Part shown: positions 34,492 through 37,567 of the stretch, one piece after another
Layout of the letters: each line of letters begins with the position of its first letter
How positions within the stretch are numbered: position 1 is the stretch's first letter
Source of the DNA: Ostreococcus lucimarinus
Taxonomy: Eukaryota
Reading direction: 5' to 3' (one strand)
Assembly (NCBI GenBank): GCA_000092065.1
Contig: CP000601.1
Length of the DNA stretch: 64,000 nucleotides
Notes under the pieces: model-generated
Database searches by the model: none
Told to the model about the DNA's origin: nothing
Seen by the model: the letters and a program-made list of their open reading frames with translations, nothing else
Translations under genes and position numbers: made by a program

Positions 34492-36603
34492 TCACATCCG
34501 TGATGCGGCGTCGAGAGCTCGAATGGCGTCTCGACTGGCGATGGCATCTTCGATTTCGACCTCGACGTCGACGATGCGGGCGTAGAAGTCGCGGAAGACG
34601 CGGGCGTTTCGCTCGGCTTCCGCCACCGGATCTTCGTTGAGAGGGAAGGTGTCAAAGTAGAGCACGCCGGCGTAGGATATGCGACGTAGCGCGCGGACTA
34701 ATTCCATGGCGGCGTGAGGATGGACGGAGGCGAACATCAAACCGTCTTCGGCGCCGAGACGGGTGTGACCGTCGCCGAGTTGGACGCCGAACAGAGCGTT
34801 TCTCGAAGCCGCCATCGCGATGGACTGGGCTGGATTCTCGCCCGCGGCGAGCGCGTGGCCGACGTCCAGTGTCAGGCCGAAGTTGGGCTCGCCCACGGCG
34901 TCGACGAGTAGGAGTGCGGCACCTGTGGTGGGGATGAAGCTGAAACGGCTCTTTTCGTCCGTCGGCTTGAATTCGACGCTCAACTTGAGCGAGCGACACT
35001 CTTCGCTCGAGGCCACTGCTTTGTAACCGACAATCATGTCCTCCCACGCCGTGGCGTAATCCGCTTGGAGATTGTAATCGTATCCATCGTAGCGAGGCCA
35101 TATGACGACTTCGTCTGCGTCGAGTGCGGTCGCAGTCGCGCACGCCTTGCGTGCCAAAGTCGCCGCGTGTTCGCGAATCACGCCATCGGGATTCGAGAAC
35201 GCGCCCAATCGAAACGGCTCCTCGGGAAATCGCACGCATACGGCGCCAGGGCGCAACTTCGCGGCAAGAATCTTGTCTCGCAATTCCACTGCCGCGAGCT
35301 CGTTGCCGTCTGGTCCGATGAAATGTTCGGGGTAGTTGAGAAACACCGAATGCACGCCCTGAACGCGTCCCATGCGCTTTATGAGGTTGAAGACTTCCGG
35401 AACGTCCGGTTCGGCATCCGTGAATAAGTCTGCGCGAGATTTCATGCTATTCAATCTACTGGCAAATCGAAGTGCCTCGATCGCCGCCTCACTGGACGAC
35501 GAAGACGACGAGATAGGGGACGTTCGGCACGGATCTGAAACGCCAAGAAATTCATCCACGTCGCTCCGAAATGGAAGGCTTGGCATCGCACCCAACTTCG
35601 TCACCGCCAAAGCCCCCGCGGCGCTGGCGAACTTCATGGCGTCGCGCTCGTTTTTATTTTCAGCCATCGCCACCGCGAACGCGGCGCGAAACGCATCACC
35701 AGCCGCGGTGGCGTCCACTTCTTTGGCGCCGGCCGGAAGTTCCATCGATTCGACTCTCGTGACGTCTTCGCCTCTCACGAGCAACGATCCTCGACTCCCC
35801 AGCGTGCACAGAACGGCGACGCGCGACGTTCCTGCGACGATTCTCGCCGCCTTAACGACCGCTTCGTCCCCAGAAGAAACCTCCTCCACGCGCATTCCCG
35901 CCATTCCCGCGAGTTCGCTCTCGTTCGGCGCGACGTAATCCACGAGCGCCAACAACGCCTCATCCGCCGCGTGAAACGAGCCTCCCGCGTCCAGCACGAT
36001 CGTTCGCACACCGATTTCCCTCGCAACCGTCGCCGCTATCACGTTCACGCGTTCCGGCACCTCCCGCTGCAGCATCACCGTCTTCGCGCCTCGCAGCGCC
36101 TCGCGAAACTCGCTCGCCAGCGCCTCGTCGTCCGCGTTCCATCCGAGCGCGTTCGCCCCCCCCACGACCACCGCGCTCGGCGATCCATCGTCCGTCAGCA
36201 TCACGAACCCCATTCCCGTCTCGATTCCGCTCCCTCGCGCCATCGTGACGCTCCCGGACACATCCGTCTCTCGCCGCAGCGCGCGTCGCAGCGTCGTCCC
36301 CGCCTCGTCCTCCCCGAATCGTCCCACGAACGCCGCCTTCCCGCCGCGCTCGCACGTCAATCGCGACGCCGCGACCGCTTGATTCGCTCCCTTCCCTCCG
36401 CACGCGCGCTCGACGCGCGCCGCCGTCGCCGCGCGCGTTTCTCCGCGGCGCGGGACCGATGTTCCGACGCGCGCGATGACGTCGGCGTTCACGCTCCCCA
36501 CGACGGCGATCGACGCGCGGTCGGCGCGCGCGAGCGCGACGCGCGCGAGCGCGGTCAGCGCGGCGCCGAGCGCGAGGCGCCGCGCGCGACGCGCGCGACG
36601 CAT
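34492..36603 (-). CDS. RBSK: bifunctional ribokinase (PfkB) :: xylose-isomerase-like TIM-barrel (sugar-phosphate isomerase/epimerase) fusion protein
   Basis: N-half: IAVVGSVNADVI, GGKGANQAVAASRL, DATAAGDAFRAAFAVAM (ribokinase anion-hole/DTxGAGD). C-half: GLTLDVGHALAAGENP, GVQLGDGH, DTFP (metal-binding TIM-barrel isomerase family). One continuous 703-aa ORF with an N-terminal presequence. Confidence 0.8.
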   Translation of the reverse strand: MRRARRARRLALGAALTALARVALARADRASIAVVGSVNADVIARVGTSVPRRGETRAATAARVERACGGKGANQAVAASRLTCERGGKAAFVGRFGEDEAGTTLRRALRRETDVSGSVTMARGSGIETGMGFVMLTDDGSPSAVVVGGANALGWNADDEALASEFREALRGAKTVMLQREVPERVNVIAATVAREIGVRTIVLDAGGSFHAADEALLALVDYVAPNESELAGMAGMRVEEVSSGDEAVVKAARIVAGTSRVAVLCTLGSRGSLLVRGEDVTRVESMELPAGAKEVDATAAGDAFRAAFAVAMAENKNERDAMKFASAAGALAVTKLGAMPSLPFRSDVDEFLGVSDPCRTSPISSSSSSSEAAIEALRFASRLNSMKSRADLFTDAEPDVPEVFNLIKRMGRVQGVHSVFLNYPEHFIGPDGNELAAVELRDKILAAKLRPGAVCVRFPEEPFRLGAFSNPDGVIREHAATLARKACATATALDADEVVIWPRYDGYDYNLQADYATAWEDMIVGYKAVASSEECRSLKLSVEFKPTDEKSRFSFIPTTGAALLLVDAVGEPNFGLTLDVGHALAAGENPAQSIAMAASRNALFGVQLGDGHTRLGAEDGLMFASVHPHAAMELVRALRRISYAGVLYFDTFPLNEDPVAEAERNARVFRDFYARIVDVEVEIEDAIASRDAIRALDAASRM

Positions 36604-36763
36604 CGCGACGACGAATGCGGCGAGCGGATTGGAATGGAATCGAATCGACGCCGCAGAGCGCGGCGTGCGGCGGCTTCGACGACGCTCGAGCGGCGACGAC
36701 GACGAACGCGACGCGACGCGCGGTCGGGCGAGCGACGGGGCGACGGCGAGGACGAGGCGCGCG

Positions 36764-37567
36764 ATGAAGGCGTCGCGAATCGCGGATTTGGAGGCGCGAA
36801 TGCGCGGGCGCGCTTCGCGCGAGACGGCGTCGAGCGCGGCGACGACGACGGCGCGGGACGCGGACGCGGATCCGACGACGTCGTATTACGCGCCGTCGAT
36901 CGGGGAGGACGAGGAGACGTTCGCGGGCGCGCGGGCGACGGCGCGCGAGGAGGCGGCGGCGCGGAGGGCGTACGCGGAGGCGTACGCGCGGCGAATGCTG
37001 GCGACGCGTCGACGAGGGACGAGCGCGGACGCGGAGGACGATTTGCGAGCGAAGCTGAGCGCGGATAAAGCGCTGGTGCTCGTGAATGATTGGGAGAGGG
37101 TGGTGGACGCGGGGGAGGCGCGAGCGCGGGAGCGGGAGAAGCGCTTCGCCGAGGCGCGCAGAGCGATGATGAGCAAAACGCGATTAAAGAGGGAAGGATT
37201 GTACGGATTGAGGCCGGAACAGTGTACGTGGAGCGCGTTTTCGAAATTGCGCGGGCTGTGGGAAAAGTACGCGCGGGCGCTGGTGAAGGACGCGAAGCGC
37301 GGCGAGGCTGAGGCGCGACTGACGCGCGGGCTCGACTTACACGGTTGCGTGCTCAAAGTCGTGCGTCACGCGCGCGCGCCCGATCTCGTCGGTCGCGAAG
37401 GTGTCGTTGCTTTTATCTCGTCGCGATGTCTCTGGCTCGTCGCGCGCAAGCGCGAGAAACCGATCAAAGTGCTCATCGACGGCGGCACGTTTGAGTTTGT
37501 TTTGGACGAGCGCGTCGTGCGTCTTTCGAGCGAGGACGTGTTGGCGTCCGCGCCGCGTCCGTCGTAG
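36764..37567 (+). CDS. POP4: RNase P / RNase MRP protein subunit Rpp29 (POP4)
   Basis: Proposed start MKASRIADLE at 36764; the earlier part of the ORF (from 36476) overlaps the ribokinase-fusion 5' end. C-terminal LDLHGCVLKVVRHARAPDLVGREGVVAFISSRCLWLVARKREKPIKVLIDGGTFEF matches the Rpp29 fold pattern (L.G..l.V..s....lvG.eGivv.et). Confidence 0.6.
   Translation: MKASRIADLEARMRGRASRETASSAATTTARDADADPTTSYYAPSIGEDEETFAGARATAREEAAARRAYAEAYARRMLATRRRGTSADAEDDLRAKLSADKALVLVNDWERVVDAGEARAREREKRFAEARRAMMSKTRLKREGLYGLRPEQCTWSAFSKLRGLWEKYARALVKDAKRGEAEARLTRGLDLHGCVLKVVRHARAPDLVGREGVVAFISSRCLWLVARKREKPIKVLIDGGTFEFVLDERVVRLSSEDVLASAPRPS

Follow-up and report, generated by a model that had tools for sequence, protein, structure and literature searches.

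The window analysed here is a stretch of 64,000 nucleotides (nt) from contig CP000601.1 of the alga Ostreococcus lucimarinus (assembly GCA_000092065.1). Its minus strand, on which every feature described below lies unless a plus sign is given, encodes at positions 34492..36603 a complete open reading frame (ORF) of 703 residues (stop codon 34492-34494), which the ORF listing and Pfam matches identify as a fusion of a ribokinase with a xylose isomerase (XI)-like triosephosphate isomerase (TIM) barrel. The protein has four distinct parts: 1) a hydrophobic N-terminal segment (residues 1-28; 36520..36603); 2) a PfkB/ribokinase-type kinase domain (residues 30-344; 35572..36516); 3) an inter-domain linker with a poly-Ser run, delimited on the predicted structure (residues 355-377; 35473..35541); and 4) a barrel of the xylose isomerase/rhamnose isomerase type (residues 378-703; 34495..35472). 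The ORF starts with an ATG, has no in-frame ATG within 150 nt upstream, and is unbroken across the linker, in agreement with a preliminary description of this DNA that had proposed a single uninterrupted 703-residue frame. The pair of domains named in that description was likewise recovered in the Pfam search: the kinase matches PfkB (PF00294) over model positions 2-300 of 302 (E 1e-40; 140.4 bits against a cutoff of 25.8), and residues 467-671 match the AP_endonuc_2 superfamily (PF01261; E 4.5e-16; 59.7 bits against 31.1). Both matches are far beyond chance. Judged from these matches and the conserved residues described below, it is very probable that the fusion is real and that both its domains are catalytically competent.

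A 703-residue protein 99% identical to the product of the window ORF is present in public data, and the exact product has no entry in the gene-position index. The O. lucimarinus reference protein ("predicted protein, partial", 356 residues) corresponds exactly to residues 1-356 (35536-36603); that is, the reference model comprises the kinase half only and ends at the poly-Ser linker. This could be taken as a sign that two adjacent genes, or one intron-bearing gene, have been misread as a single ORF. Such an artefact is hardly credible, as not only is the frame unbroken, but the same colinear architecture recurs in over 100 clusters, among them complete ORFs derived from transcriptomes, and in full-length models from O. 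tauri, and the full-length AlphaFold2 (AF2) model is confident in both domains. The 356-residue sequence is recorded under two accession pairs (ABO99257.1/XP_001420964.1 and ABP01289.1/XP_001422930.1) on two contigs, which may represent a duplicated segment or a duplicate record.

The clusters containing the fusion are drawn, with named examples in brackets, from green algae (Chlorella, Chlamydomonas, Tetradesmus, Micractinium, Chloropicon, Raphidocelis and Monoraphidium), dinoflagellates (Effrenium, Alexandrium), diatoms (Thalassiosira, Cyclotella), pelagophytes and chrysophytes, the last two groups with one named carrier each. Several NCBI records of green-algal fusions already bear the name "ribokinase/xylose isomerase", and the full-length O. 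tauri orthologs are labelled "Xylose isomerase". Both domains are found together on MMETSP transcripts marked "complete", a point in favor of one common transcript in algae other than O. lucimarinus. The preliminary description had considered the combination not to be a standard eukaryotic arrangement; on the contrary, many algal lineages have retained it, and the fusion itself is already catalogued and widespread. When 1.84 billion representatives were scanned exhaustively with HMMER, 438 clusters (50% identity) were recovered at E <=1e-10, and in the long proteins among them the kinase always comes first. Other architectures were also encountered (P0315, P0051, P0101): one 529-residue protein has the barrel at its N-terminus followed by an unassigned tail of ~190 residues, and some green-algal models of more than 1000 residues carry additional Lipase_3 or LRAT domains; the latter are probably merged gene models. 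There are no land-plant records among the best 120 matches, no viral homologs were found, and literature searches, not all of them well aimed, yielded no paper or functional study on a ribokinase/TIM-barrel fusion.

The kinase domain contains both signature motifs of the PfkB family. The first, GGKGANQA (residues 69-76; 36376-36399), reads as previously quoted and includes K71 and N74, the equivalents of K43 and N46 of E. coli RbsK. The second (residues 297-305; 35689-35715) had been misquoted as DTxGAGDAF and in fact reads DATAAGDAF; as this is the same form as the DTIAAGDTF of E. coli RbsK, the motif is still intact, and its D303 is equivalent to the catalytic base D255. In all, N39, D41, K71, N74, E181 and D303 align with RbsK N14, D16, K43, N46, E143 and D255, and these six positions are conserved in 87-102 of the 102 fused homologs, so that the ribose-contact residues and the catalytic base of a ribokinase (RbsK, EC 2.7.1.15) are all present. 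The best solved relatives of the domain are without exception ribokinases, headed by 6ilr of A. thaliana (E 6e-51; 177 bits), with E. coli RbsK at 140 bits. The entries 6ILR/6ILT represent the Arabidopsis ribokinase, which has a 69-residue extension (PMC8551123). The plant plastid RBSK and E. coli RbsK (1GQT/1RKD) have the PfkB fold, both motifs, the ribose-contact residues and the catalytic Asp in common with the algal kinase, which differs from RbsK in its fusion to a TIM barrel and its hydrophobic, signal-like N-terminus. The NCBIfam ribokinase models score 180-197 bits on the domain; the equivalog model TIGR02152 gives 197.5 bits against a cutoff of 299.65, but as this model was built for bacteria a eukaryotic sequence may miss its cutoff for that reason alone.

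The N-terminal segment, MRRARRARRLALGAALTALARVALARAD, is signal-peptide-like or anchor-like, as judged from a helix at residues 2-27 in the full-length AF2 model and from the hydropathy of its homologs. Read by eye, it displays a layout of charged, hydrophobic and small residues (MRRARRARR / LALGAALTALA / ...ARA-D) resembling that of a cleavable signal peptide, and its maximum 11-residue hydropathy is 2.1. A hydrophobic N-terminal window (>=1.6) occurs in 81 of 83 homologs versus 19% of internal control segments, and the median maximum hydropathy of the N-terminal extensions is 2.61 versus 1.11 in those controls. The extension has a median length of 33 residues, and its hydrophobic character is kept in green algae as well as in algae with secondary plastids (diatoms, dinoflagellates and pelagophytes). 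In the diatom Cyclotella the whole extension amounts to 20 residues, which leaves no space for a transit peptide behind the hydrophobic stretch. The presequence that the preliminary description had placed ahead of both domains does exist, but it is short (~28-31 residues ahead of the kinase fold), hydrophobic, and resembles a signal peptide rather than a transit peptide. Its sequence characters would imply a secretory or membrane-anchored location, which is unexpected for an ATP-dependent sugar kinase.

The full-length AF2 model has a mean predicted local distance difference test (pLDDT) score of 92.7 and a predicted template modelling (pTM) score of 0.73, with residues 362-369 of the linker below a pLDDT of 50, i.e. 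disordered. The model of the C-terminal domain alone reaches a pLDDT of 95.3 and a pTM of 0.92; the drop in pTM on going to full length indicates that the mutual orientation of the two domains is undefined in the model. With a disordered linker and this drop, the model lends no support to the channelled route suggested in the preliminary description.

The C-terminal barrel was compared with the metal-ligand and pocket set of XI, namely E181, E217, H220, D245, D255, D257 and D287 together with H54, W16, F94 and W137. In the EFKP motif (residues 544-547; 34963..34974), E544 and K546 align with the metal ligand E181 and the catalytic K183; in LDVGHA (residues 579-584; 34852..34869), D580 and H583 align with E217 and H220; and in DTFP (residues 651-654; 34642..34653), D651 aligns with D287. 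The segment QLGDGH...EDG (residues 608-621; 34741..34782) supplies D611, E619 and D620 as candidate ligands of a second metal. LDVGHA and QLGDGH (residues 608-613; 34765-34782) had both been quoted correctly before, and the isomerase catalytic residues that the preliminary description supposed in this half are indeed present by alignment, in the form of XI-type ligands and the catalytic Lys. E544, K546, D580, H583, D611, D620 and D651 are invariant, and position 619 is either E or D. The features retained from XI are thus the ExK motif, H583, the Asp of strand β8 and a Trp in β4 (W502); changed are E217 (D580), D245 (Q608), the DxD motif ([E/D]619-D620-G621), the W16 position (N385) and the FHD of β2, which is replaced by N423-x-P-x-H427. 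Hence the full XI set is not present, and the scores against the XylA (EC 5.3.1.5) models are low (xylA_Arthro, 61.3 bits against 447; xylose_isom_A, 21.5 against 533).

The most distinctive changes map to the ends of the first three strands. At the end of β1 the motif RLNS (residues 383-386; 35446..35457) is a polar and cationic, family-specific element in place of the G-L-W-H/T of XI and of the protein with PDB entry 3KTC; the end of β2 bears NYPEH (residues 423-427; 35323..35337), of which N423, P425 and H427 are invariant; and β3 ends in R458 (35230..35232). Comparison of predicted and solved folds ranked 3ktc first (40.2), followed by class-I xylose isomerase and the L-rhamnose isomerase of P. 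stutzeri (both 35.8) and class-II xylose isomerase (32.7); after a clear gap came ketose 3-epimerase-type proteins (<=28.6), IolI (25.5, rank 14) and the phosphosugar epimerase UlaE (21.7, rank 36). Class-I xylose isomerase and the P. stutzeri rhamnose isomerase are 16-23% identical to the algal barrel, which is ~60-100 residues shorter and in which Arg, Asn, Ser and His replace the hydrophobic pocket and Q608 the His/Asp ligand; the RhaI models score far below their cutoff, and a length of ~430 residues would be expected for this type. The 3KTC protein, an uncharacterised putative sugar isomerase of Pectobacterium atrosepticum, is 25-27% identical to the algal barrel and keeps the XI-like pocket (G-L-W-H at β1, E-I-Y at β3, D at the XI-D245 position, and DDD), whereas that of the alga has changed. 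The 3KTC protein may be related to the D-apiose isomerase ApsI. The gene for ApsI is reportedly (Carter et al. 2018) accompanied by an apulose kinase and a split transketolase; the pocket residues of the algal barrel differ from this type, and no transketolase occurs in the 84 bacterial contexts described below. Model scores and the fold ranking together ruled out xylose isomerase proper, IolC/IolI, FrlC/FrlD, pseudouridine kinase/glycosidase and ketose 3-epimerase.

The algal barrel instead belongs to an unnamed family of bacterial TIM-barrel proteins linked to kinases, defined by the motifs RxNS[MF], NxPxH, an R ending β3, ExKP, DxxH, [HQ]L[NG]D, [ED]DG and DTFP. These are common to the window protein and to members from Pantoea, Klebsiella, Rhizobium, Roseibium, the Bacillus group, Arthrobacter and a deltaproteobacterium, and R383, N385, S386, N423, P425, H427 and R458 are invariant throughout the family. 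In the window protein the kinase linkage takes the form of the fusion. Full-length single-domain homologs with 35-44% identity gave at least 550 matches among GTDB species representatives; they are devoid of a signal peptide, unlike the algal fusion. Their gene neighborhoods were analysed at 84 loci with tblastn and unfiltered ORF clustering. A ribokinase-like PfkB gene is found within the flank in 74 of the 84, and only two loci with full 8-kb flanks have none. The other clustered neighbors are ATP-binding cassette (ABC) ATPases (57 loci), RpiR regulators (49), ribose-type permeases (49), solute-binding proteins (SBPs; 48) and RbsD/FucU (17). The typical cassette accordingly comprises the TIM barrel, a ribokinase-like PfkB kinase, an RpiR regulator and a ribose/allose-type ABC or major facilitator superfamily transporter, with or without RbsD/FucU. 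Clustering of these 84 contexts revealed no further conserved catabolic enzyme, which means that the barrel and the kinase together must reach a central metabolite. In the eight tightest loci the genes abut or overlap, yet remain separate, unfused ORFs, and the bacterial TIM gene is usually upstream of the kinase gene, whereas in the algal fusion the kinase comes first.

The bacterial partner kinases belong to the ribokinase subfamily (180 bits to a solved ribokinase) and score 231-250 bits, under the equivalog cutoff of 299.65. The algal kinase domain, however, gives only 54-92 bits with them (tblastn) versus 177 bits with the plant ribokinase, and on these sequence scores the partner kinase is not an ortholog of the algal one. 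The alga has therefore combined a ribokinase of host type with a barrel of bacterial type, and the pairing arose at least twice independently, which is strong evidence for functional coupling. The cassette is a better bacterial analogue of the fusion than the IolC/IolI pair of myo-inositol catabolism, which the preliminary description had named as the nearest analogy in proposing an inosose-type salvage route. The IolC and IolI proteins do belong to the same two superfamilies (PfkB and AP_endonuc_2 respectively), but to different subfamilies on both sides: the IolC model gives 58.5 bits on the kinase domain against a cutoff of 300, far from the values of the ribokinase models, IolI is placed low in the fold ranking, and iol genes are absent from all 84 contexts. 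A role in inosose or inositol-type salvage is thus exceedingly improbable.

Several loci show additional features. In 9-13 of them (L056, L059, L072, L044, L064, L079 and others) the TIM and kinase core is flanked by genes for BtpA/SgcQ-family, M42 aminopeptidase-like, HxlB-like SIS (154 bits against a cutoff of 160) and xylulokinase-like FGGY proteins, a set that resembles the uncharacterised sgc operon of E. coli. Pantoea sp. At-9b carries a cassette-type TIM gene (L001) and a 3ktc-type one (L085), on the plasmids pPAT9B04 and pPAT9B02; the product of the latter is 86% identical to 3ktc and its gene is solitary, beside pckA. The two are paralogs with presumably different functions. The SBP encoded at L083:13633-14736 is nearly identical to PDB 5dkv (431 bits), reportedly an Agrobacterium vitis SBP solved with D-tagatose, and the same cluster contains a GolD/DthD-type short-chain dehydrogenase/reductase gene upstream of the kinase. 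The SBP entry 5DTE is reported to contain D-allose; looking up the PDB codes in the literature gave no hit on these ligands. One cassette-type homolog (P0212, Commensalibacter sp.), which shares 65% identity with the Klebsiella protein, is termed "D-apiose isomerase" in an NCBI record, a name probably transferred from ApsI.

Among bacterial proteins, the one closest to the algal barrel (44% identity) comes from a deltaproteobacterial metagenome-assembled genome, locus L005. It possesses the algal-like Q at position 608 and an insertion before the EDG motif, and it falls inside the algal clade in a quick neighbour-joining tree, in which none of 30 bootstraps gave strictly monophyletic algae. 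At L005:3978-9835 the genes for a FucA-like aldolase, the TIM barrel and the PfkB kinase overlap by 4 nt each, and this triad is divergent from MtnK and MtnA, the genes of methylthioribose/5-deoxyribose salvage. A second, true ribokinase (309 bits, above the cutoff of 299.65) lies downstream with RbsD/FucU, whereas the TIM-coupled kinase scores 243 bits. The gene triad follows the classic isomerase/kinase/aldolase logic. The association with the aldolase, MtnK and MtnA recurs at no other of 85 loci and hence was not generalised.

Taken together, the RbsK-type residues, the XI/RhaI-type two-metal ligand set with its catalytic Lys, the conservation across algae and the bacterial pairing suggest that the two domains most likely catalyse successive reactions of a single ribo-configured sugar. 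Their functional coupling on a ribose-like sugar is probable, and a coupled role in pentose-type salvage is plausible. As to the order of the steps, we lean, at somewhat under even chances, towards one in which the isomerase acts first. The C-terminal domain would then be a Mn/Mg-dependent aldose-ketose isomerase acting on a free sugar, and the ribokinase domain would trap the ribofuranose-type product with ATP, thereby pulling the equilibrium. In the algal case the favoured sequence would be D-ribulose to D-ribose to ribose-5-phosphate, in which the orphan activity D-ribose isomerase (EC 5.3.1.20) would operate in the direction of ribose, coupled with the kinase, and so supply the pentose-phosphate pool as a salvage route. 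A metal-dependent interconversion of D-ribose and D-ribulose is the simplest activity to assign to an isomerase that has a ribokinase as its partner. Such an activity was reportedly found in Mycobacterium smegmatis by Izumori et al. in 1975, and the subunits of the purified enzyme are said to be ~42-44 kDa, larger than the ~36-kDa algal domain. No sequence had been assigned to EC 5.3.1.20 as of 2020 (PMC7408626).

This order is favored because the characterised close structural relatives of the barrel all act on free sugars; because in six or more loci the gene immediately upstream of the TIM gene encodes a FucU/RbsD mutarotase; because L005 combines the gene triad with a true ribokinase beside the TIM-coupled one; and because both enzymes are needed if the pair alone reaches a central metabolite. 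Several observations weigh on the other side. Position 608 (34780-34782), a ligand in XI (Asp) and rhamnose isomerase (His), is Q in 69 of the 102 algal proteins, including that of the window, and in L005; it is H in 32 of the 102 and in the bacterial members used for comparison. R383, N385, S386, N423, H427 and R458 occupy the places of the hydrophobic pocket residues seen in the XI and 3ktc types. The Rhizobium-type SBP is nearer to allose-binding proteins (8wl5, 136 bits; E. coli AlsB, 133) than to RbsB (~113), the aldolase triad is confined to a single locus of the 85, and D-ribulose is seldom encountered as a free substrate, least of all by a bacterial importer of high affinity. Finally, the signal-peptide-like N-terminus fits poorly with cytosolic or plastid salvage, and an isomerase-first scheme gives no account of it.

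The altered pocket bears on the reverse order, in which D-ribose would be phosphorylated first and the C-terminal domain would be a metal-dependent phosphopentose/allose-6-phosphate isomerase that produces ribulose-5-phosphate, an analogue of RpiB/AlsI in an XI-like fold. The ends of strands β1-3 are, in XI complexes, the seat of the O5 end of the substrate, and the polar residues there are specific to the family, the solitary 3ktc-type paralog lacking them; the two invariant Arg residues suit a phosphate better than a hydroxyl and so favor the kinase-first order. The same order is seen in the domains of the protein itself, and the cassettes include RpiR-family regulators; the RpiR protein of E. 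coli regulates rpiB as well as the als operon. In ribose catabolism, moreover, the ribokinase reaction is canonically followed by that of ribose-5-phosphate isomerase (PMC8551123). Against this stand the unphosphorylated substrates of all characterised close structural relatives and the fact that the reaction would duplicate the ubiquitous RpiA/RpiB, while FucU/RbsD beside the TIM gene and the L005 aldolase triad are better suited to an isomerase of free sugars. Phosphorylation as the first step is thus a possibility, though one distinctly short of probable. It is unlikely, but conceivable, that the barrel represents a third, metal-dependent class of phosphopentose (ribose-5-phosphate/allose-6-phosphate) aldose-ketose isomerase on the XI fold, which in algae is fused to a ribokinase and targeted to the endomembrane system by a signal peptide. 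If so, this would amount to a lumenal or membrane-associated route from ribose to ribulose-5-phosphate without a described counterpart.

Neither of the two orders might apply, and we would give this possibility a modest share of belief. The allose-like character of the Rhizobium-type SBP raises the prospect of a ribo-hexose route, in which a D-allose/D-psicose isomerase and phosphorylation of psicofuranose would be followed by an AlsE/RPE-type epimerase encoded elsewhere, leading to fructose-6-phosphate. The fold likeness to the P. stutzeri L-rhamnose isomerase, which was crystallised with D-allose and D-psicose, the presence of RpiR/AlsR-type regulators and the position of the partner kinases below the ribokinase equivalog cutoff would all be compatible with this. 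The als/rpiB regulon of E. coli (AlsB, AlsK, RpiB/AlsI and RpiR) resembles the cassette in uniting an RpiR-family regulator, an AlsB-like SBP, a sugar kinase and an aldose-ketose isomerase that serve a ribo-configured sugar. However, it employs a ROK kinase and the RpiB isomerase, whereas the cassette has a PfkB kinase and an XI-like barrel and is without an AlsE equivalent. As no epimerase is conserved in the bacterial clusters, the algal kinase is nearest to a genuine plant ribokinase, and allose and psicose are, to our knowledge, not recognised algal metabolites, the hexose route is improbable. There is a similarly slim chance that the C-terminal domain is not an aldose-ketose isomerase but an epimerase, dehydratase, lyase or hydrolase of the AP_endonuc_2 type that acts on a ribose derivative. 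Members of the superfamily differ widely in their chemistry, with endonuclease IV and C-glycoside lyases beside epimerases and dehydratases, the metal ligands diverge from those of XI at the E217, D245 and DxD positions (the second being Q or H), and L005 lies beside the MtnK/MtnA salvage genes; on the other hand, the catalytic Lys of XI and the ligands of the second metal are kept.

The genes around the fusion in O. lucimarinus are unrelated to it, encoding a Ser/Thr kinase, a GRAB-domain coiled-coil protein, an acyl-CoA dehydrogenase, Rpp40 and an SMP/C2 protein, which is the expectation for a compact eukaryotic chromosome. Throughout the 64-kb window the genes are nearly back to back on both strands, its GC content swings from ~0.51 to 0.69 across 2-kb windows, and no tRNA genes were found in it. 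An ORF of 363 residues without a Pfam match (36476-37567, +) shares 128 nt with the 5' end of the fusion gene; its true start probably lies further downstream, which would leave a very short divergent intergenic region.

Two existing annotations can be corrected on the basis of these results, namely the "Xylose isomerase" label of the O. tauri proteins and the O. lucimarinus model truncated to its kinase half. As the fusion itself was already on record, the value of the analysis lies in the link between operon and fusion, the altered cationic pocket and the odd targeting signal. The fusion serves as a Rosetta stone that ties an uncharacterised TIM-barrel family to ribokinase chemistry, and it makes the members of this family testable candidates for the orphan D-ribose isomerase or for a new phosphopentose isomerase. 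In the algae it points to a ribose-salvage enzyme that is not seen among land-plant records in the best matches and that bears an unexpected, secretory-type N-terminus.

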